Positions 26,925 to 35,535 of a stretch of 53,037 nucleotides of DNA are shown here, piece after piece. The position numbers were made by a program, and so were the translations under genes. Source of the stretch: a virus; the UHGV virus genome UHGV-0150124. One strand, 5' to 3'. The notes under the pieces were generated by a model that did not search any database, had not been told where the DNA came from, and saw nothing but the letters and a program-made list of their open reading frames with translations. Within the stretch, counting starts at the first letter, position 1; each line of letters starts with the position of its first letter.

Positions 26925-27203
26925 CAGAATAATCTCCTATTCTGAAAAATATAACCCCCGCAAAACTCGACACCGCAGGGAGTGAAAACAGTTATAAAAC
27001 ACTGAAAACGGCGCTTCATCAGTACCGTTTCCAGAATTTTATAAAATTGGTGAATGGCGCTTTCTTCTACCCAGGTAGCGCCTGACCTGTTAATGGGACT
27101 GTTGATCCGGTATTACGTGTTTTTGACTATTCCGCCGTCGCTCGCGGGAAGGATTGGCCCGGTTATGGCTGGCTGACAGAAACGGCGACACGTCAACGCG
27201 CTG

Positions 27204-27692
27204 CTATTCTTTGCGTAAACACTGAGTTTTGATGTAGTCCTGTAGGCCAGTGATCTGTGCGTCTTTCTCTTTTAGTTGTTCTCTGAGGGATAGATAAGAT
27301 TGTCTAGCAGTGGCATCAAGCTCGCAGGTGGCTCCATCAATGCGGCTGGCGGTCGCGGCGGGGTCGGACACTCGCACGGGTATTGCGTTGACGCGCAACC
27401 GGATAGTACCGTTATCAATGCCAGTGCGCAGATCGGCAATGTCAGATCTGATAGCTTTAATCTCATCGTGATACCTCTTATCAAGTTTTGACAGTTCGGC
27501 GTTTCGCTCCTTCATCTGCTGAATAGTGTTACTTGCCGTTTTCAGTGCGCCTTTCGTTACCGTGACTTCTTCCTGTAACCTTGCCGCCTCACCCTGGTAA
27601 TAACATGTTACGGCGGTCAGTCCGGCAATAATGCAAACAACAGCGGCGATAATTAACGCCTTCACCTTGTCCACGTTTCCCCCCATTCGCAA
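27204..27692 (-). CDS. Rz: Rz-like i-spanin
   Basis: N-terminal TM helix, coiled-coil body, C-terminus resembles lambda Rz ([22 protein letters not shown]...CL). Confidence 0.8.
27272..27466 (-). CDS. Rz1: Rz1-like o-spanin embedded in Rz in another frame
   Basis: Lipobox LSGC after a signal sequence, then Pro-rich [14 protein letters not shown]; fully nested within Rz. Confidence 0.75.
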   Translation of the reverse strand: MRLKLSDLTLPICALALITVLSGCASTQYPCECPTPPRPPAALMEPPASLMPLLDNLIYPSENN

Positions 27693-28153
27693 ACGGCATA
27701 TTCAACCTCGCGGCGGTTTACCAGGCCTTGCCACTTCTTACCGCCAGCGTATACCCAGCGTTTAAGCTGTGCGCACGCTTCTGATTTCTTGCCGTCATTG
27801 AGTAGTTTTAGTAAGGTTGATGTTTTGAAGTTGGTAGCGCCTACGTTATAGGCGAATGAATAAAGTGCTGCGCGGGTAAAATCTGATATTTCGACTTTGA
27901 TATATGGGTCAATCGCTTTTGCGGTCTTGTGTAGATCTTTATTTAACAAAGCATCGCATTCTGATTGCGTGTAAGTCTTACCAAGCATGATGTCTTTTCC
28001 GACGTGTCCATAACATATCGTGTAAACACCGATGACATCTCTGTATGGCTTATACTCAACGCCTTCAAGATCTTTTATCATCACCGCCGCAATAGCGATC
28101 GCCCCACCAGCCGCCGCCGCAACAATCTTGTTTTTCAGCGATTGGCTAATCAT
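27662..28153 (-). CDS. SAR endolysin (T4-lysozyme-type muramidase)
   Basis: Start at MISQSLKNK; Gly/Ala-rich N-terminal signal-anchor [17 protein letters not shown]; catalytic E-x8-D-x5-T spacing in [17 protein letters not shown]. Confidence 0.85.
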
Positions 28154-28154
28154 G

Positions 28155-28355
28155 TTACTTATTCCCCATTCGCGCGTCGTGTTCCTCTTGCGCTCGCTTG
28201 TTCTCCTGTGATTTGAAGTAATAGTTAACGGCAAATGTGCCTATGGTTGATAAGATACCCACAAAGACAGCAATATCATTAATGGTTATCGCGCCGAAAA
28301 AAGCAGTTACGGCCCCGGTCACATACGCGCACGCCTCCCGTATTCTGTCGAACAT
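28155..28355 (-). CDS. Holin (class II / pinholin-like)
   Basis: 66 aa, two hydrophobic segments, charged C-terminus [19 protein letters not shown]; stop overlaps SAR endolysin start. Confidence 0.65.
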
Positions 28356-28370
28356 AGATTTTCCTCCAAC

Positions 28371-28397
28371 AAAGCAAAAACCCGGCTCGTGGCCGGG
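28371..28397 (-). terminator. tR'-like intrinsic terminator just upstream of the holin RBS
   Basis: On minus strand: hairpin CCCGGC-CACGA-GCCGGG followed by TTTTTGCTTTG, then GGAGGA and the holin ATG. Confidence 0.55.
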
Positions 28398-28460
28398 TAA
28401 TTACAATTTCGCATTGTTAGGAAATATTTTAATCTATTTGTTTTTTATGCGCGATTATGG

Positions 28461-28643
28461 CTACAAATCACTAACTTTCACCAAATCGCCATTATCAAGC
28501 CAGATTTTAATTGTTTCTCGCGTCGTCTTGATGATTGGCGCTACCCACTCACCATCGCTAACGCAAACGCGAATATCACCACCCTCTACGCGATAAAACA
28601 TCTTGTCGATTAGTGTTACGGCGTATATACCATCTTCAATCAT
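28461..28643 (-). CDS. Hypothetical small protein
   Basis: 60-aa ORF with AGGAG RBS. Confidence 0.4.
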   Translation of the reverse strand: MIEDGIYAVTLIDKMFYRVEGGDIRVCVSDGEWVAPIIKTTRETIKIWLDNGDLVKVSDL

Positions 28644-28646
28644 TTC

Positions 28647-28823
28647 TTGCGCTCCTTAATAACCCTTTTGATCTGCGCGCGCGGCATCTACGAGAGCAAT
28701 AAACACCGCTACAGGCCAGAAAGGAATCTCAAGACCACCACGATCGAGATCATTAGATTTGATAAAACAAGACATCAGGATAGCGCCAGCAATATAAAGG
28801 AGAAACACAGCAATGATAAGACA
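28647..28823 (-). CDS. Small membrane protein (~58 aa)
   Basis: Hand-translated MIECLIIAVFLLYIAGAILMSCFIK...; below the track length cut-off. Confidence 0.3.
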
Positions 28824-28956
28824 TTCAATCATCCTCTTTCTCCCCGCCTAAATATTGATATATTTCTTCAGCATTTTCCCCGCGCTCAAAACAATAATGT
28901 TCAAACATGCGCCAATTTTCACTAAGAAACATAACAATAAAATTGTTAACGTATTC
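28816..28956 (-). CDS. Small ORF (~46 aa)
   Basis: Hand-translated MDDEYVNNFIVMFLSENWRMFEHY...; start follows stop of upstream gene. Confidence 0.25.
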
Positions 28957-28967
28957 GTCATCCATAG

Positions 28968-29219
28968 TTAATCATCCTCTTCATCATCTTCTTGTTCAGC
29001 CAGGAAATCATCTACGGCACGGTAAGTAACTGGAGGGATATATTCGAAGTCATCCGTATCAAGATCGAGCGTCCTGCTGTCGCCGTCGTCGTCAATCGTA
29101 TTCATTCCCAACTCACCGAAAGGGCCGTACCCAATGTGGCCCAGGTATTCGCAACCAATCGTAAACCCAGGGTATTCGCCTTTACACCGGATTTTGTAAG
29201 GTTTATTTGATGCGCTCAA
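28968..29219 (-). CDS. Hypothetical protein with acidic C-terminus
   Basis: 83-aa ORF ending EQEDDEEDD. Confidence 0.4.
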   Translation of the reverse strand: MSASNKPYKIRCKGEYPGFTIGCEYLGHIGYGPFGELGMNTIDDDGDSRTLDLDTDDFEYIPPVTYRAVDDFLAEQEDDEEDD

Positions 29220-29320
29220 TTTTAGAATCTCCGTCTTTCAGTGGCTTATATATAACAAAACGGCACTGCCGGAACAATGCCATTTCGTAAACATTGTGAT
29301 AAAGATCACATTTTGTTCAT

Positions 29321-29605
29321 TTAACTTGCATTTTCATCTACCTTTAAATAATTTTTCGTGTCAATATCTGCCGGATACCTTGAAAATTGCGCTAACCATT
29401 GTCCGGTAATGTTTTTCACCAGTGCATAATCAAGATCGCCGCAGTAGAATACCTGGTACATCGCCCCTTCGTTATCACTCATAACGAACACCATTGGATC
29501 AGTAGTCGCATTGCGCAGCCTGTGAATCGTGTAAGCATGGCCCGTAGTGAATTTGTACTCGTTACACGTTGTGCGGCAAAACATCCGGTCAAAATAGCTT
29601 TCCAT
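29321..29605 (-). CDS. Hypothetical protein
   Basis: 94-aa ORF, same strand as neighbours. Confidence 0.4.
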   Translation of the reverse strand: MESYFDRMFCRTTCNEYKFTTGHAYTIHRLRNATTDPMVFVMSDNEGAMYQVFYCGDLDYALVKNITGQWLAQFSRYPADIDTKNYLKVDENAS

Positions 29606-29856
29606 CAGAAAACCCCTTTATAATCGACCGTGTATTTTGCTACTAATTTCCATTCACAATAGTTTTCCATGTCGCGAGGTTGCCAGCCTTTCATGCCTAC
29701 AGCACCCCGCACACCGTGACGCCGATAATCATCGTTATAGTCAGCTATGCACCACGGCTGAAGTACAAACATATAATTGGCCTCGTTAACCAGGATCGCC
29801 ATCTGCTTTCCTGTTGCCTTATCTTTCGCCCGGAAATAACTTACCCTGATTTTCAT
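29605..29856 (-). CDS. Hypothetical protein
   Basis: 83-aa ORF, stop-start overlap with downstream ORF. Confidence 0.4.
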   Translation of the reverse strand: MKIRVSYFRAKDKATGKQMAILVNEANYMFVLQPWCIADYNDDYRRHGVRGAVGMKGWQPRDMENYCEWKLVAKYTVDYKGVF

Positions 29857-30067
29857 TTTGAATTACCTCAATCAACATTTCTTCTTCCAGGTTAGCCGGA
29901 CGCCTACGAAATATTCCGGCAAAAACCAAATCGTCGAGTAGGTCTTTACGCTTAAATAACCACTCCTTCATTATTACCCCGTCGTCGCTGCGATATACGA
30001 CGCCGTTTTTCAGAAAATAAAAAGTGTGGGTATTTGTCTGAAGGTATAGATCTTCGTAAACATCCAT
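29819..30067 (-). CDS. Hypothetical protein
   Basis: 82-aa ORF. Confidence 0.35.
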   Translation of the reverse strand: MDVYEDLYLQTNTHTFYFLKNGVVYRSDDGVIMKEWLFKRKDLLDDLVFAGIFRRRPANLEEEMLIEVIQNENQGKLFPGER

Positions 30068-30071
30068 GATG

Positions 30072-30299
30072 TTAACCCTCGACTACTTCCAGCCCGCGCC
30101 CCTTGTCGCCAACGAAGTCGCCCAAGCTGAACGTATACGACCATGCCGGATTTATGTAATGATCATCAGCGCCAGCGGCAATTAGGTCAGCACCGTTAAT
30201 CATGCAAGTGACACCATCGCTATGAACGACATTAACAACCTTACCAACAACCTGTTTCAGTGACGGATAACCGTGATCGTGCAAGAATTTAACTTTCAT
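30072..30299 (-). CDS. Hypothetical protein
   Basis: 75-aa ORF. Confidence 0.4.
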   Translation of the reverse strand: MKVKFLHDHGYPSLKQVVGKVVNVVHSDGVTCMINGADLIAAGADDHYINPAWSYTFSLGDFVGDKGRGLEVVEG

Positions 30300-30529
30300 T
30301 CCTCTGTCTCCCAGCGGTCTATGCTGATTAAAAAGTCCCGGATAGCGTGTCGCTCGTCGCGCGTTGGCTTGCGCTTCCGGTAAATCTTAAAGTCAAACCA
30401 TTCTTTTTCTTGTTCGAAATCCATGTCGTAAGCAAGCGCCTCAATATATCCGCAGTCGTGATACTGGTACGCCAGGCCAGCACGAACAAAAAAGCGGGTT
30501 TTATCCCGCTTGTGTTCATAGATACGCAT
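30296..30529 (-). CDS. Hypothetical protein
   Basis: 77-aa ORF, overlapping stop-start. Confidence 0.4.
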   Translation of the reverse strand: MRIYEHKRDKTRFFVRAGLAYQYHDCGYIEALAYDMDFEQEKEWFDFKIYRKRKPTRDERHAIRDFLISIDRWETEE

Positions 30530-30539
30530 ATTTACCCCG

Positions 30540-30770
30540 CTATGCAGTTGTGTAGCTGTCTACCAGCTTTTCATCCTTCATTCTGGCAAGCTGTGCGATG
30601 TTCATCGTGTAGCCGCCATCAGAGAAAAACCACTCCGCAGCCTTGCGACGAAAAACAATATCATCATGGTTGTGCGTCCATGTAGCGATAACCACTCGCT
30701 TTCCGTCAGTGGCAAACATTGTTAATTCATTATCAACTACGTCGATAGCCTGCCAGATTTTTATCTCCAT
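30540..30770 (-). CDS. Hypothetical protein
   Basis: 76-aa ORF. Confidence 0.4.
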   Translation of the reverse strand: MEIKIWQAIDVVDNELTMFATDGKRVVIATWTHNHDDIVFRRKAAEWFFSDGGYTMNIAQLARMKDEKLVDSYTTA

Positions 30771-31126
30771 GATTTACCCCCGTAAATTTTGAATAATTCA
30801 CGTGCTTCCTTGTCTTCAAAGAGATTCATATGCAGGTTATGCAGACGGCGCATTGTGCGGAAACGCGGTCGGAATTCCTGGCTGTTTTTAATAAACTTAC
30901 CGCCAATTGAATAAATATGACCGTATGAATACCATCTATTACCCACCCAAATTAGATATTCTTCACCCTCATAATTAAATCTTATTGTAAGCCCGTCAAC
31001 CTCCATTATTAATCCTTTATCGAGGATGTCGTTTAACATCGAATCCCATTCTTTGAGGAATGGTTGTTGATAAAAACCAAAAAGCGTATTTGCAGCATGG
31101 CAAAGATAATCAATTATTATTTGCAT
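30761..31126 (-). CDS. Hypothetical protein
   Basis: 121-aa ORF. Confidence 0.4.
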   Translation of the reverse strand: MQIIIDYLCHAANTLFGFYQQPFLKEWDSMLNDILDKGLIMEVDGLTIRFNYEGEEYLIWVGNRWYSYGHIYSIGGKFIKNSQEFRPRFRTMRRLHNLHMNLFEDKEARELFKIYGGKSWR

Positions 31127-31130
31127 ATTA

Positions 31131-31337
31131 TCACCACATCATATAGTAAACGTTATCATTGGCTATCTCGTCAGCCTCATCCTGGCAATCGAAAGGCACC
31201 AATTTATCTGGATCGTGAAAGTCAAAAGCGAGAAACCTTGCTATCCTACGCCTCATTCTTTTGTTGTGCTCAAGATCATCAAAAGCCTTTAATGCTTTGT
31301 CGTATGCCCTTACAAGGCGCTTACGGTTACTTTTCAT
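31131..31337 (-). CDS. Hypothetical small basic protein, tandem paralog 1
   Basis: 68 aa MKSNRKRLVRAYDKAL...DNVYYMMW; paralog of the adjacent gene. Confidence 0.45.
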   Translation of the reverse strand: MKSNRKRLVRAYDKALKAFDDLEHNKRMRRRIARFLAFDFHDPDKLVPFDCQDEADEIANDNVYYMMW

Positions 31338-31341
31338 ATTG

Positions 31342-31542
31342 TCACCACATCATATAGTAAACGTTATCATCTGCTAATTCGTCTGCGTCTCTTTGGCAGT
31401 CGATTGTCGCATCATCTTCGTGCCATTCTTTAGCAAATAAACGCGCCCATTTACGACGCTCACGTTTATTGTGCCGCAGGTCACTAAAAACCATTAAAGC
31501 CTTGTCGTAAGCTCTTACCAAGCGTTTCATTCTACTTTTCAT
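31342..31542 (-). CDS. Hypothetical small basic protein, tandem paralog 2
   Basis: 66 aa MKSRMKRLVRAYDKAL...DNVYYMMW; shares 5' DNA block with paralog 1. Confidence 0.45.
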   Translation of the reverse strand: MKSRMKRLVRAYDKALMVFSDLRHNKRERRKWARLFAKEWHEDDATIDCQRDADELADDNVYYMMW

Positions 31543-31748
31543 TTTTCACCATTCCTTAATTCCTTAATTTCAATATTGCGTAACCGGACGTCGCACGGCG
31601 TTTCAGATTTACCAGTAAGCGCCAGCGTCAGGTTTTCAGGTGTCGTGTAAAGAGTTATCTCTTTACCAGTGCTAAATTTAATTTCTATGCGGATCTCGTT
31701 TTCATCACCGCACAATACGCGGCTAATTGACAGGCCAGCTTTTTTCAT
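31539..31748 (-). CDS. Hypothetical protein
   Basis: 69-aa ORF. Confidence 0.4.
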   Translation of the reverse strand: MKKAGLSISRVLCGDENEIRIEIKFSTGKEITLYTTPENLTLALTGKSETPCDVRLRNIEIKELRNGEK

Positions 31749-31761
31749 TGCTCAACAAACC

Positions 31762-32061
31762 TTAAAATCTGTATTGCCAGTAAATATCACACTTTATTGC
31801 GAATACCTTCACCGGATCAGGGCCGAATAGTGGATGTTGAATCAACTTGATTTCGTACCCCATGTAAGGCAATACGATAATCCGGTCTTTCTCATCATCC
31901 GATGGATAACCCCATTTAATGATTAATCTTGTGTACTCCCGCCCCTCCAGGCGTTTACGCCAGTATTCATTGTAAAGCCGGTATTCTTCCACCTTCTTTC
32001 CCGCCCGGATGGCGTGGAAGTATTCACCTTTTAAATTCAAATGTAAGTGTTTATTTGCCAT
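31762..32061 (-). CDS. Putative ASCH/PUA-like domain protein
   Basis: 99 aa; N-terminus LHLNLKGEYFHAIRAGKKVEEYR resembles ASCH domain openings (by eye). Confidence 0.4.
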   Translation of the reverse strand: MANKHLHLNLKGEYFHAIRAGKKVEEYRLYNEYWRKRLEGREYTRLIIKWGYPSDDEKDRIIVLPYMGYEIKLIQHPLFGPDPVKVFAIKCDIYWQYRF

Positions 32062-32320
32062 CGCTATGATCCTGTAAACAGTCGTTATAGCCTTCGATGT
32101 ATCCGGTTAATCCTGTGTTACTTACTGACCAATCAGCCGAACGGCGCTTGATGGCCTTGTCCATAGTCATCTCGTCACCTGGCCCGCCTGGCTCGATGTA
32201 TTTTCTTAAATCCCTTGCTATCCACGTCCCTAATTGTTGCGTATCACTGCACACACGCGCCGTTAATGTCAGATTATTAACCAGCTTTGCGAATAGATGT
32301 TCTTTTAATTTAGGCTTCAT
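32051..32320 (-). CDS. Hypothetical protein
   Basis: 89-aa ORF. Confidence 0.4.
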   Translation of the reverse strand: MKPKLKEHLFAKLVNNLTLTARVCSDTQQLGTWIARDLRKYIEPGGPGDEMTMDKAIKRRSADWSVSNTGLTGYIEGYNDCLQDHSDGK

Positions 32321-32510
32321 CCTTCACCTCGCGACGATAGATTTCTACTGGCTTAACCGGAATAGCGTTAAAATCCCCTTCATCCAGTGCGGCAATAAAC
32401 GTTAGCGCCAACCGTGCTTCAACACCGCTTAAATACTTGCACCATGCCTCACCGTTATAATCTTCAAAAAGAATAACCGCTTTTTTCATGTTTATCTCTT
32501 GTTGTTTCAT
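32310..32510 (-). CDS. Hypothetical protein
   Basis: 66-aa ORF starting at the Q stop codon. Confidence 0.4.
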   Translation of the reverse strand: MKQQEINMKKAVILFEDYNGEAWCKYLSGVEARLALTFIAALDEGDFNAIPVKPVEIYRREVKDEA

Positions 32511-33232
32511 TATTCACCCCGTGTCACTCGTTTAATTTCGTTATCAGCCCGCGCCTCTTCTTTGAACAATTCAGTAATGGCGTCTTCATAGAAAGCACGG
32601 TATTTCTTCCACCACGTTGATCGGCTTACCGGAAATACAAGCTGATTAACCGCACGCCGGACAAGATCTACAGGGAAACGCGAGTACCCGCGCCCGCCGC
32701 AATGCTGGCACGTTTTGAACACTGGCATTTCCGCTGCTTCACTGGCTGCTTTATCCGGTATCTCGCCGCGCCCTTTGCATCGTTTACAATGATTACGAAC
32801 TTTTCCATGCCCCTTGCATTTTTTGCAAAGGTGTTTTTCTCCGTAGTCGTCAAACGTAAATTTATATCCGCCGCAATCCATACAAGTTTTTTCTGTCGCG
32901 GCACTCTGGCAGTAATCCCGAAACGCGAAAACGGCAACAAGAATAATAAGATCATTGCGTTTGTCCTCGTCCAGCTCTATGACGTATTCGTAATCTTTTG
33001 CCATAGCTCTTAAACGCTCTGTAAGCAAAACTACGGCCCTGTGTTTTTCGGCTTGCGATAGTTCCATCTTTCCCAAAAAAGCGCTATAGCCAAGCTCTAC
33101 GCGCGATTGCGCCATACCCGCAGCGGTTAGCGCATCCGTCGTATTAAGAGCGTCCGGGGACGTGCCCCGGCTTTCGTCAGATAATCGCGGTGATTTAGGA
33201 AAGTGGAATTTTAGAATGGATTCTAAATTCAT
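32510..33232 (-). CDS. Q: Late-gene antiterminator Q (lambda type)
   Basis: 240 aa; N-terminus MNLESILKFHFPKSP vs lambda Q MRLESVAKFHSPKSP; Cys-rich zinc-binding segment CMDCGG...CKRCKGRGE...CQHCGGRGYSRF. Confidence 0.85.
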   Translation of the reverse strand: MNLESILKFHFPKSPRLSDESRGTSPDALNTTDALTAAGMAQSRVELGYSAFLGKMELSQAEKHRAVVLLTERLRAMAKDYEYVIELDEDKRNDLIILVAVFAFRDYCQSAATEKTCMDCGGYKFTFDDYGEKHLCKKCKGHGKVRNHCKRCKGRGEIPDKAASEAAEMPVFKTCQHCGGRGYSRFPVDLVRRAVNQLVFPVSRSTWWKKYRAFYEDAITELFKEEARADNEIKRVTRGE

Positions 33233-33414
33233 TATTTGCCCTCATAACGTGCCGCCAGCCGTTTACGATCAGAAATGGATTGCACCAGCTTTCTTTCGAA
33301 CTCTTTCAGCGCAAGTAATTCGCGCATGTGGAAAGCCTGGATTTGTCGGACCGTCTCTAAATCACGCTCGTCGCGCTGAATATCTATTTGCAGATCTTTA
33401 ACTTCGTTTTTCAT
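33232..33414 (-). CDS. Hypothetical coiled-coil protein
   Basis: 60-aa ORF between RusA and Q. Confidence 0.35.
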   Translation of the reverse strand: MKNEVKDLQIDIQRDERDLETVRQIQAFHMRELLALKEFERKLVQSISDRKRLAARYEGK

Positions 33415-33818
33415 TGCTCACCCCACATATTAGTCGCGTATTCGTCAATATCCGGTAGTAGGTCGCCGCGTTCGCGGATCTTAATAAACAAGCGTCCGCC
33501 TTTTACCTTCCGGCAGCGAACAATTTTTATTGCGTCGATTTGTCCGTCATCCTTCCAGAACTCTGCATAAGTAAGACTATCAAAAAGGCATTTGGGGATA
33601 TTATCCAGATCTCTGATCCGGTTATCCGGCGGCGCGGCGTAAATGGCAATTGCCAGTCGGCAAGGTAGGTTAATATTTAAATTTAATAGCTCGATGATGT
33701 CTCTTACTTGTTCCCTGTATTCCTTCCCCACTTTGCTGATATAGTGAAAACCGCGCGAATGTCGGTAATAGCGATTATTCGATGGCGGGTAAGGCAGGCT
33801 AAAAGAATATTCATTCAT
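33411..33818 (-). CDS. rusA: Holliday junction resolvase RusA
   Basis: 135 aa; MNEYSFSLPYPPSNNRYYRH...RDLDN...GGRLFIKI matches RusA by eye. Confidence 0.85.
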   Translation of the reverse strand: MNEYSFSLPYPPSNNRYYRHSRGFHYISKVGKEYREQVRDIIELLNLNINLPCRLAIAIYAAPPDNRIRDLDNIPKCLFDSLTYAEFWKDDGQIDAIKIVRCRKVKGGRLFIKIRERGDLLPDIDEYATNMWGEQ

Positions 33819-34420
33819 GCTGCCTTTCTCCTTAAGGCGTCCAATTTAGCCTGATAGATGTTTATTAGCTCCTTACATTCTGCGATCGTCCATTTATGCG
33901 TATCATTGTTGTTTTCCAGCGCTACCACCCTGGCGAGGCCAATTTTTCGAATCAGTGCCGGGCGATACCCTCCTATGTTCCCGTCTAATGTCTGGTTGCA
34001 GTGCCTGCATTGTTTATGGCAATTATCTTCGTTAAAGCGAAGATGTCCGGCGGCGGCTACCGTCCTGTAATGACCTGCATCCCACCCGCATTGCTCACCG
34101 TAGTAAGTCCCGCAAGATATACACGGCAAGCGCGCGTCACGTTCGCGAATATAGGCGTTAAATACATTTTGAACTTGTTTGATCCAATAACTACGCGGAT
34201 TTAACTGTTTACGCTTCCGGTTGCGTTCTTCCCTCTGGCTATCACGGCGTTTCTTCCGCTCCATAGCCTTCATAGCCTTCTCACGGTCGCGGCATAACTG
34301 GTCAAACTTCAGTTCTTCCAGACATTCATCGCTGCACCACGTTTGATTATGATATTTAGGCTCAAAAAAAACGCCGCAGCACTTGCAACGGCGTCTTATG
34401 GGTTTTTTAGGGTTTTGCAT
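33815..34420 (-). CDS. ninG: NinG (Rap)-like recombination-associated protein
   Basis: Cys clusters and SYWIKQ...AYIRERDARLPCISCG...WDAGHYRTVAAA...HKWTIAECK align with lambda NinG; track ORF extends to 34510. Confidence 0.8.
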   Translation of the reverse strand: MQNPKKPIRRRCKCCGVFFEPKYHNQTWCSDECLEELKFDQLCRDREKAMKAMERKKRRDSQREERNRKRKQLNPRSYWIKQVQNVFNAYIRERDARLPCISCGTYYGEQCGWDAGHYRTVAAAGHLRFNEDNCHKQCRHCNQTLDGNIGGYRPALIRKIGLARVVALENNNDTHKWTIAECKELINIYQAKLDALRRKAA

Positions 34421-34732
34421 AAAAACCACCCCGATTATTTTTGATTCTCTGTTTCGTTCAGCCTTTCGGCGTGTCCGGCCCTTAGCCAATGTTCTAAGCA
34501 TTCGTTGCACTCGTTACAGCCTCCTTTCTTCGTGCTGCATACATTGCACATTGCACGCATAACGCTTTCTCGTTCATAGTCGTCATGCCATTGGTAATCA
34601 TCAAAAGACATAATGCTCTCTCCTTTTCAGGTGATTTCTACGCATTTCAGCGCTGCCGGATTTTTAAAGAGCATTTTGTTTGCTTGAAGTATACAAAATG
34701 GATATGCCATAACAAGGTGAAAAGCGCCATTA

Positions 34733-34748
34733 TGTGATACGTATCACA
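34733..34748. promoter_or_regulatory. CRP-consensus palindrome TGTGATACGTATCACA
   Basis: Perfect TGTGA-N6-TCACA within a fully symmetric 14-bp palindrome, in the gap between methylase and ninG. Confidence 0.4.
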
Positions 34749-34770
34749 CAGTGACGCCATTTTGTAAACT

Positions 34771-35535
34771 TCAGTCCGGCAAAACACGGTTAAGCGTAGT
34801 CCGCGTGATGGCCCTGTCGTTAGCCAGGAATACAGCTCGTGCGAAGCCGCGCGGCGTTAGTGAGCGGATCATCTTAGTGCGCTTCGACTTTCCGCCTAAC
34901 TTCGCGTGCTGCTTACTGTCTTCCCATTCATCCGGCATTGGTACAGGCCGGAATAGCGGCTGCTTAAATCCATTACCACACCAAATACATGTTTTCTTCG
35001 TGTAGGCATCGCGGTCGGCAATGTATTCCGGGAAAGCAGGATGTTTGTCATCTTCAGGCAGGTAGCCACCGTAAACGCAAGGATTGAAGATAAAATCCGG
35101 TTTACGCCATAACGTTGACAGTGCGCCAACTGGATTTTCCACCATCCACGGCACGTTATACATATTCGCCAGTTTTTCTACAATTTTTGCGTTATACGCC
35201 GCCTTTACCTGGAAGCTAGGATCTTTTTTCCGTTTATCAGCGAACCAACGAGCGCCTGATACGGCAAGATCATCACACGGAGGAAAGCCCAAGATAATGT
35301 CAGGCTCTGGATAAACAGACAATTCAGGGGAGAACATTACCAGGAAATGGCTGTCAATCCATACGTTAACATATTCAATATTTGGATGAATTATTTTTAC
35401 CCCGTCATAATCCCCGTGATTAGCGCCGTCATAGTTGAAGCAATAGCATTTATAACCAGCTTCCGCCCAATCTTTAACGGCGTACCCGCTTCCGTCGTAC
35501 AGCGACCAGATAACCCAATTTCTAAGCCCGCTCAT
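34771..35535 (-). CDS. Putative DNA cytosine methyltransferase-like protein
   Basis: 254 aa; GFPPC (Pro-Cys) and MVENPVG (ENV-like) motifs; unusually short for a C5-MTase. Confidence 0.45.
   Translation of the reverse strand: MSGLRNWVIWSLYDGSGYAVKDWAEAGYKCYCFNYDGANHGDYDGVKIIHPNIEYVNVWIDSHFLVMFSPELSVYPEPDIILGFPPCDDLAVSGARWFADKRKKDPSFQVKAAYNAKIVEKLANMYNVPWMVENPVGALSTLWRKPDFIFNPCVYGGYLPEDDKHPAFPEYIADRDAYTKKTCIWCGNGFKQPLFRPVPMPDEWEDSKQHAKLGGKSKRTKMIRSLTPRGFARAVFLANDRAITRTTLNRVLPD

Follow-up and report, generated by a model that had tools for sequence, protein, structure and literature searches.

A block of seventeen small genes between a lambda-type Q gene and a holin-proximal promoter-like cassette in an mEp021-group coliphage: probable tail of a delayed-early operon

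Here we describe a block of 17 consecutive small open reading frames (ORFs) on the minus strand of UHGV virus genome UHGV-0150124, at positions 28461-32510 of the 53,037 nucleotides (nt) analysed (this whole stretch is called the window below). The block separates the gene for a lambda-type antiterminator, Q, from the holin gene. By comparing it with its counterparts in related phages and prophages, we arrived at the reading, to which we assign a probability of about 0.6, that the block constitutes the accessory, distal portion of a delayed-early rightward operon, situated between Q and the site at which Q would act. Early rather than late expression is favoured because the block is placed between Q and a candidate late promoter/terminator cassette; since no promoter module was found between Q and that cassette, the 17 genes are most simply explained as the tail of the delayed-early operon. 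Three outcomes should be of use to others working with these phages: the block is probably early, five of its genes are present in every member of the group that we compared, and the late switch probably resides in a cassette of about 100 nt beside the holin gene.

A dense gene block with an invariant core and variable flanks

The window belongs to the mEp021 group (mEpimmI) of temperate Escherichia coli phages. Its megablast matches are mEp554, mEp044, mEp013, mEp010, mEp021, mEp515 and MagusPhagus, with a DNA identity to mEp021-group phages of 86-90% over only 42-67% of the region, and megablast also places related prophages in 35 complete E. coli genomes. The mEpimmI phages, which were described only recently, are temperate, non-lambdoid siphoviruses of human faeces that depend on Nus factors; in them an N-like antiterminator, Gp17, acts at three nut sites, and they are reported to be as common as lambdoid phages among collected human-faecal coliphages (PMC11893012). 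Published members, among them mEp021 (MH706966) and mEp554 (PP180005), have the same gene order as the window, namely rusA, a small ORF, Q, small hypothetical genes, the terminator TERM_5, holin and lysozyme; the paper leaves the block from Q to holin undiscussed, its genes being annotated as hypothetical (PMC11893012).

Numbered o01 to o17 along the direction of transcription, the block ORFs encode proteins of 66, 89, 99, 69, 66, 68, 121, 76, 77, 75, 82, 83, 94, 83, 46, 58 and 60 amino acids (aa). Sixteen begin with ATG and one with TTG, all 17 are preceded by a G-rich stretch resembling a Shine-Dalgarno sequence, and only 150 of the 4050 nt are non-coding, such that the block is 96% coding. 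Eight junctions overlap, by 1-38 nt each, and the sole internal gap of more than 13 nt is that at 29220-29320 (101 nt). A preliminary description of this DNA, made from its letters alone, had spoken of about 18 tightly packed ORFs of 46-121 aa between Q and a terminator; the packing is as dense as described and the size range is exact, while the number is 17.

That 16 of the 17 ORFs lack a match to any family of known function, the exception being a sub-threshold ASCH match in o03, would be consistent with chance open frames in non-coding or decaying DNA. The coding density and the Shine-Dalgarno-like stretches argue otherwise, as does conservation, which the preliminary description had named beforehand as a test. 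PHROG profiles match 15 of the 17 ORFs with E values of 1e-19 to 1e-59, the best match of each being a family of unknown function, and orthologs are called as coding sequences in all relatives inspected, in both PGAP and PHANOTATE annotations. Median ratios of nonsynonymous to synonymous substitution (dN/dS), taken over dozens of ungapped orthologs from related loci, range from 0.03 to 0.35 for the 15 ORFs with informative pairs and are about 0.1 for most genes. Because dN/dS against orthologs is this low, we take the ORFs to be real genes, and the conservation pattern excludes, for practical purposes, that they are chance frames.

A scan of IMG/VR with the Q protein yielded 46 further loci; 50 loci hold both Q and holin, and presence counts given below were made on 45 distinct loci. 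The Q-to-holin interval measures 2.0-7.3 kb in all 50. mEp021 has the shortest, with 8 genes in 2.0 kb, the window lies on the short side, with 17 genes in 4.2 kb, and other relatives reach 27 genes and 7.3 kb. Across the loci compared, the 8-27 genes fall into at least 34 families, a figure that is a lower bound because single-linkage clustering of the proteins merged unrelated neighbours (o03 with o05/o06, and o14 with o17), and the relative order of the families is constant. By sequence comparison, then, the interval is a colinear mosaic of presence and absence. It is a major site of gene-content variation in these phages, and it holds dozens of small families without known function.

The block is not homogeneous, because it is made of a fixed core of five genes and two fast-turning flanks. 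The core, o08-o12 (29605..30770, minus strand; 76, 77, 75, 82 and 83 aa), occurs in every one of the 45 distinct loci, with identities of 68-98%, mEp021 with its minimal interval of 2 kb among them, and is common to the window and the published mEpimmI phages; its dN/dS is 0.075-0.145. Adjoining it on the Q side, o07 (30761..31126, minus strand; 121 aa), which matches phrog_16975, is nearly as constant and was found in 44 loci. The Q-proximal genes o01-o06 (31131..32510, minus strand) are variable, occurring in 18-43 loci, with o04 (69 aa) the scarcest at 18, and are absent from mEp021; o01 and o02 exist among relatives as alleles of only 50-70% identity. On the holin side, o13 (29321..29605, minus strand; 94 aa) is a rare gene, present in 6 loci, with no PHROG match and a dN/dS of 0.096, and the distal genes o14-o17 (28461..29219, minus strand; 83, 46, 58 and 60 aa), all matching PHROGs of unknown function, occur in 20-41 loci, o15 in 20.

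Within the Q-proximal flank, o05 and o06 (31131-31542, minus strand; 66 and 68 aa) are tandem paralogs, 63% identical to each other, and other families are present in up to three or four tandem copies in relatives. We propose that gain, loss and tandem duplication of genes account for the turnover of the flanks. The block as pictured in the preliminary description stands, while its non-uniformity, that is, the invariant five-gene core, the variable flanks and a conserved internal terminator, had been missed. The two paralogs have the same C-terminus, DNVYYMMW, and the same junction sequences, and they match phrog_8758 in its C-terminal half alone (positions 71-150 of 151).

The Q gene and the candidate late cassette beside the holin gene

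The Q gene of the window (32510..33232, minus strand; 240 aa) encodes an antiterminator of lambda type (Pfam PF03589, E 2e-30; lambda Q chains 7UBM, E 2e-39, and 4MO1, E 8e-26). In an alignment with the Q proteins of lambda, P22 and S149, it retains the N-terminal and helix-turn-helix regions and the CxxC pairs of lambda Q. The family assignment follows PMC9388147, where the cassette consists of the Q gene, the late promoter pR', a sigma-dependent pause element, a terminator and the late genes. Residues about 117-147 of the window protein form an insertion with an additional CxxC...CxxC pair, which matches the DnaJ-like CXXCXGXG pattern at E 1e-5 and is lacking in lambda and P22 Q. Salmonella phage S149 carries a longer form of this insertion, common to both proteins, and its Q is, among the matches listed, the closest from outside the group, at 36% identity. 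The insertion suggests a subfamily of Q in which the zinc-ribbon arm is double and the Q-binding element may differ.

In lambda, pR' lies directly after Q, a statement of the preliminary description that the lambda sequence confirms. In the window, the stop codon of Q overlaps the ATG of o01 at 32510, and there is therefore no space for a promoter after Q; the candidate promoter lies 4.1 kb downstream of Q. A Q-dependent promoter might instead be embedded in the 3' end of Q or in the first ORFs, in the manner of Stx phages, in which case the block would form part of the late operon and the terminator before holin would be a distal one, read through by Q-modified polymerase. Aligned Q 3' ends of the relatives argue against this arrangement, since they carry no promoter-plus-pause motif and vary at third codon positions as ordinary coding sequence does. 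So do the genes directly after Q, which are divergent alleles (50-96% identity) or, in mEp021 and the loci L031 and L048, missing altogether.

The candidate late promoter is found in the 105-nt spacer between o17 and holin (28413..28454, minus strand). It comprises a weak -35 hexamer, TCGCGC (28454-28449), a conserved A-rich spacer, AAACAAATAGAT (28443-28432), that may be a Q-binding element, a -10 hexamer, TAAAAT (28431-28426), and, 7 nt after it, a putative -10-like pause element, AACAAT (28418-28413). Among 29 haplotypes, both TAAAAT and AACAAT are 100% invariant, and the 7 nt separating them show 86% identity. A tR'-like intrinsic terminator (28371..28398, minus strand; stem 28398-28392 / 28386-28380, loop CACGA, T-run; z = -3.6) follows, directly before the Shine-Dalgarno sequence of holin; its stem is invariant and its loop variable among relatives. 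The preliminary description had placed a terminator at 28371..28397, and a hairpin with its T-run indeed occupies these coordinates. Approximately 100 nt before holin, here called module B, are kept in each of the 34 distinct versions, although the gene in front of them is any of at least five unrelated ones, and constitute the sole universally conserved non-coding element of the Q-to-holin interval. In the same 29 haplotypes, mean pairwise identity of module B is 94.6%, compared to 85.8% at the third codon positions of holin. The pattern TAAAAT-7-AACAAT is unique in the window, for which the chance expectation is 0.23.

The tR'-like terminator corresponds to TERM_5 of mEp021, and t5 is one of the terminators that a figure legend gives as experimentally demonstrated (PMC11893012). 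We infer that TERM_5, and with it the terminator of the window, is this demonstrated t5. The genes beyond it form a lysis cassette (27204..28355, minus strand) with a holin of the HP1 family (28155-28355; Pfam PF16080, E 2e-14), a lysozyme (27662-28234; Pfam PF00959, E 6e-44) and Rz/Rz1-like ORFs, which would be the first genes of the late operon. Terminators were reportedly also tested in the study of Gp17 antitermination in Arch Virol in 2023.

In a MAFFT alignment of five sequences, the two invariant hexamers of the window fall in register with known late promoters, on the -10 TAAATT and the pause element AACGAT of lambda and P22, and also on TATCAT...AACAGT of S149. The lambda late promoter reads TAAATT, 6 nt, AACGAT, and P22 has the same motifs. 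In S149 (L055, 2296-2412), directly after Q, there is a good promoter, TTGCAA-N17-TATCAT, followed by 5 nt, TAACAG and a terminator. The P22 record annotates tR' only 30-58 nt past the late start, and a leader as short as that predicted here therefore has precedent. Most likely, the late promoter, the Q-utilisation site and the terminator form one compact cassette at about 28371-28454. The hairpin and tail of the S149 terminator resemble P22 tR', and the S149 spacer can usefully serve as an outgroup in defining the late promoter of this subfamily of Q.

A boxB-like hairpin in module B, ACAAU-GCGAA-AUUGU, was considered and rejected, as its stem is broken by a C in about half of the relatives. 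When 27000-35000 was compared with Rfam at E 1, the sole match was to sroH, at 18.5 bits where the gathering score is 80, and is put down to chance; no tRNA was found in a search of the window.

Several observations count against a cassette at this position and an early block behind Q. The bare two-hexamer pattern arises by chance in about 20% of shuffled windows, and the -35 of the candidate promoter is poor (TCGCGC) in the window and variable among relatives. A scan with the sigma-70 consensus missed the candidate altogether and, with 15 sites compared to 15.1 expected, found no excess in the region. The core gene o11 (29819..30067, minus strand; 82 aa) encodes a protein sharing 94% identity with mEp021_41, a product that carries the annotation 'virion structural protein' and was detected by mass spectrometry in mEp021 virions; its gene has been remarked on as "mislocated", ahead of the lysis region, in a paper that nowhere uses the phrase "late promoter" (PMC11893012). 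A protein found in virions fits a late gene better than an early one. Moreover, 16 of the 17 block genes are without an assigned protein function.

The presence of the o11 ortholog in purified mEp021 virions and the weak -35 beside holin are what a block within the late operon would lead one to expect, and long Q-to-holin intervals are known from Stx phages. Such an arrangement would leave the constrained 60 nt upstream of the hairpin unexplained, and the alignment with the late promoters of lambda, P22 and S149 falls at the holin-proximal site; together with the overlap and the lack of a motif at the end of Q, this makes late expression of the block from a promoter at Q unlikely in our view.

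We therefore prefer to place the block in the delayed-early operon. The preliminary description had likewise placed it early, and the overlapping Q stop codon, the variable Q-proximal genes and the module B alignment support that placement in silico. It had named beforehand a late promoter upstream of the block as the finding that would speak against it; the Q 3' ends carry no such promoter-plus-pause motif, and the candidate adjoins holin. In further support, two block genes appear to be drawn from an early-type gene pool. Homologs of o04 are found in Dhillonvirus and Stx phages, and the one in Stx phage P13374 has ea22-like genes around it and is located past exo, in the pL early-left operon, while homologs of o10, 40% identical, are found in virulent rV5-like phages.

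The model that we favour would run as follows. From the early rightward promoter, RNA polymerase modified by the N-like Gp17 and Nus factors at the nut sites would transcribe ninF, ninG, rusA and Q, and then the 17 small genes, which would be translated largely by coupling, through their overlapping stops and starts. Modified polymerase would pass a terminator within the block, at 29255-29288, whereas unmodified polymerase would halt there or at the terminator before holin. The cassette before holin, with its -10 TAAAAT, 7 nt, the sigma-dependent pause AACAAT, some 20 nt, the hairpin and the U-run, would by itself yield an RNA terminated after about 45 nt. When enough Q is present, it would load at the pause and enable polymerase to read past the terminator and transcribe the genes for lysis and morphogenesis. 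The products of the flanks would be small soluble, acidic or membrane proteins active in the replication phase.

The internal module and likeness to known accessory regions

The only sizeable gap within the block, at 29220..29320 (minus strand; module A), contains a CRP-like palindrome at 29295-29310, followed by a hairpin at 29255-29288 with a U-run. The hairpin (-19.5 kcal/mol, z = -5.8), flanked by A- and U-runs, is a predicted intrinsic terminator, equivalent to T10 as predicted for mEp554, and separates o01-o13 from o14-o17. By blastn, module A has a match in 42 of 50 loci, the weakest two or three of which align poorly to the hairpin. Modules A and B both hold ACAATG...CGAAAT, and the idea that they are duplicates was rejected, the shared motif being too short.

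In the window, the palindrome TGTGATCTTTATCACA is a perfect CRP consensus (TGTGA-N6-TCACA). About 61 bp downstream of its centre there is a possible start, which a weak putative promoter, TTGTTC-N17-TATATA, read by eye, would serve. These features raise the alternative that the block or part of it, especially o14-o17, is a moron-type cassette that has its own promoter in the lysogen and serves the host, in fitness, exclusion or conversion. The distal genes are bracketed by the terminator at 29255-29288 and the one before holin, and o16 is a two-helix membrane peptide, both of which would suit such a cassette. The first half of the CRP-like site is conserved in relatives, yet the second is mostly CCCCGCA or CCTCGCA and thus not kept; the putative promoter is weak and was not called by the promoter scan; no domain indicative of a benefit to the host was found in Pfam, PHROG, NCBIfam or PADLOC; and o14-o17 share strand and packing with the rest of the operon. 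On balance, we regard a moron-type cassette as improbable, and continue to treat o14-o17 as the end of the delayed-early operon.

The arrangement has likenesses to three known systems. The nin region of lambda (ninA-ninI, deletable by nin5) also consists of small, packed, same-strand ORFs that are mosaic among relatives. It lies in the pR operon, is largely dispensable and has internal terminators that are overcome by N, by which its distal genes depend on antitermination; the terminator of module A may be analogous to these. In position the two differ, as nin lies between the replication genes and Q and the block of the window lies after Q, and no block protein has homology to a named Nin protein in Pfam or PHROG. 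By this analogy, the block is like an accessory region of the nin type that has been moved beyond Q.

Stx phages, too, hold multi-kilobase cargo between Q and holin. In these phages, pR' is followed by tRNAs, stx, several ORFs and then S, and the cargo, being downstream of pR' and tR', is Q-dependent and late. In the window, by contrast, the cargo comes first and the conserved promoter-terminator cassette follows it; no tRNAs and no toxin genes were found in the window.

The candidate late cassette itself resembles that of lambda and P22, with a lambda-type Q, a candidate -10 followed 6-7 nt on by an AACxAT pause-like hexamer, and an intrinsic terminator before the lysis genes; the predicted leader is short, as in P22. 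The window departs from lambda and P22 in its weak and variable -35 and in the extra zinc-ribbon-like insertion of its Q. In lambda, P22 and S149, pR' lies about 40-80 nt past Q and holin 0.4-0.7 kb from Q, whereas in mEp021-like phages 2-7 kb of genes intervene between Q and the cassette. As judged from these comparisons, a lambda-type Q gene 2-7 kb from its presumed site of action is the sole distinctive feature of the group relative to lambda, P22 and S149. We regard the block as an ordinary, if uncharacterised, hotspot of accessory genes that a published phage group carries at a slightly unusual position. The layout indicates that a lambda-type Q gene can lie at a distance from the site where Q presumably acts; it is of modest interest and leaves the general understanding of such systems unchanged.

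The block proteins and their possible roles

The preliminary description had called most of the block proteins unrecognisable, and this holds for the 16 other than o03, for which there is no match in Pfam, NCBIfam or PADLOC. Pfam searches at E 0.01, extended to E 10 for ten of the proteins, gave only a sub-threshold ASCH match, for o03, besides noise (SpoU_methylas_C and DUF4474), and NCBIfam at E 1 gave noise far under the cutoffs (OXA beta-lactamase and Nei2). PADLOC returned nothing at E <= 0.1 for the block proteins, no dedicated anti-defence library having been searched. The sole annotated PHROG match is a weak secondary one (E 5e-5) of o07 to a membrane-protein family in the category 'moron, auxiliary metabolic gene and host takeover'. 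Homologs of o07 occur in Edwardsiella phages and Salmonella prophages, all hypothetical, and deep sequence searches with o07 and o11 retrieved hypothetical proteins only, without Pfam domains, the named matches being from E. coli for o11 and from E. coli and Salmonella for o07.

The exception, o03 (31762..32061, minus strand; 99 aa), had been described beforehand as ASCH-like, and homolog names and fold matches bear this out, although its match to the Pfam ASCH profile (PF04266; E 0.01) scores 17.0 bits, under the 21.2-bit cutoff, and covers only the first 26 profile positions. An identical ortholog is named "ASCH domain-containing protein" by PGAP, and some of its 148 homologs are named ASCH, DUF3850 or RNA-binding. 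An AlphaFold2 model built from 73 sequences has a pLDDT (predicted local distance difference test score) of 88.8, and its top 17 Foldseek matches in the Protein Data Bank (PDB) are all ASCH or PUA-like proteins (3IUW, 2Z0T, 5GUS and YqfB among them), at marginal significance (best E 0.012, template-modelling score about 0.5). These results point to a PUA-like beta-barrel.

Host- or defence-modulating roles are, by analogy, the usual expectation for genes of this generic profile, which are small, early, mosaic, duplicated and shared. More specifically, and as the preliminary description had suggested in speaking of host-takeover or anti-defence functions, the small proteins could be counter-defence or host-shutoff factors, the variable flanks reflecting an arms race with host defence; this would be compatible with delayed-early expression and would refine that explanation. 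Some of the proteins are very acidic, o14 and o15 (28825-29219, minus strand) having an isoelectric point of 4.1, with 22 and 13 acidic compared to 6 and 3 basic residues. Presence/absence mosaicism and tandem expansion of paralogs in the flanks, and homologs in early regions of unrelated temperate and virulent phages, also fit. Neither PHROG nor PADLOC gave a match to an annotated defence or anti-defence family, and the five-gene core, being invariant and under purifying selection, is unlike the turnover that an arms race would produce. We consider counter-defence or host shutoff possible but not likely, as a tentative account of these proteins.

The core o08-o12 might alternatively be a functional module specific to the group, with o11, encoded upstream of the candidate late promoter while its ortholog is recovered from mEp021 virions, being synthesised early, incorporated into the virion and passed on together with the DNA when the next cell is infected, a scenario that we think quite doubtful. 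It can be likened to IPI* of phage T4, an anti-restriction protein that is injected. If true, the block would hold a previously undescribed class of packaged early protein, and a new phage family would be defined by a regulatory layout in which a hotspot of accessory genes separates Q from its utilisation site. Homologs of o11 were found only in E. coli and all have at least 62% identity; the supplements of PMC11893012 have no entries for gp38-gp42. AlphaFold2 gave one o11 model with a pLDDT of 81 and four of 50-55, and Foldseek found nothing in the PDB better than E 0.59. The gene overlaps o12 by 38 nt (29819-29856, minus strand), and in relatives its product is either 82 aa long or, via an indel near codon 66, 71 aa long and ending in ...DEVLK. 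Because both forms occur, the last 12-15 residues are probably dispensable.

At the distal end of the block, o16 (28656-28832, minus strand; 58 aa) has two hydrophobic helices, its gene lying just upstream of the lysis cassette. Upstream of Q, the window has homologs of ninF, ninG and rusA, and between a methyltransferase gene and the ninF-like ORF there is a boxA-like sequence, TGCTCTTTAAAAA (34661-34673, minus strand), followed by a short GC-rich stretch with CTGAAATGCG. This is the position of nutR2 as described for mEp021.

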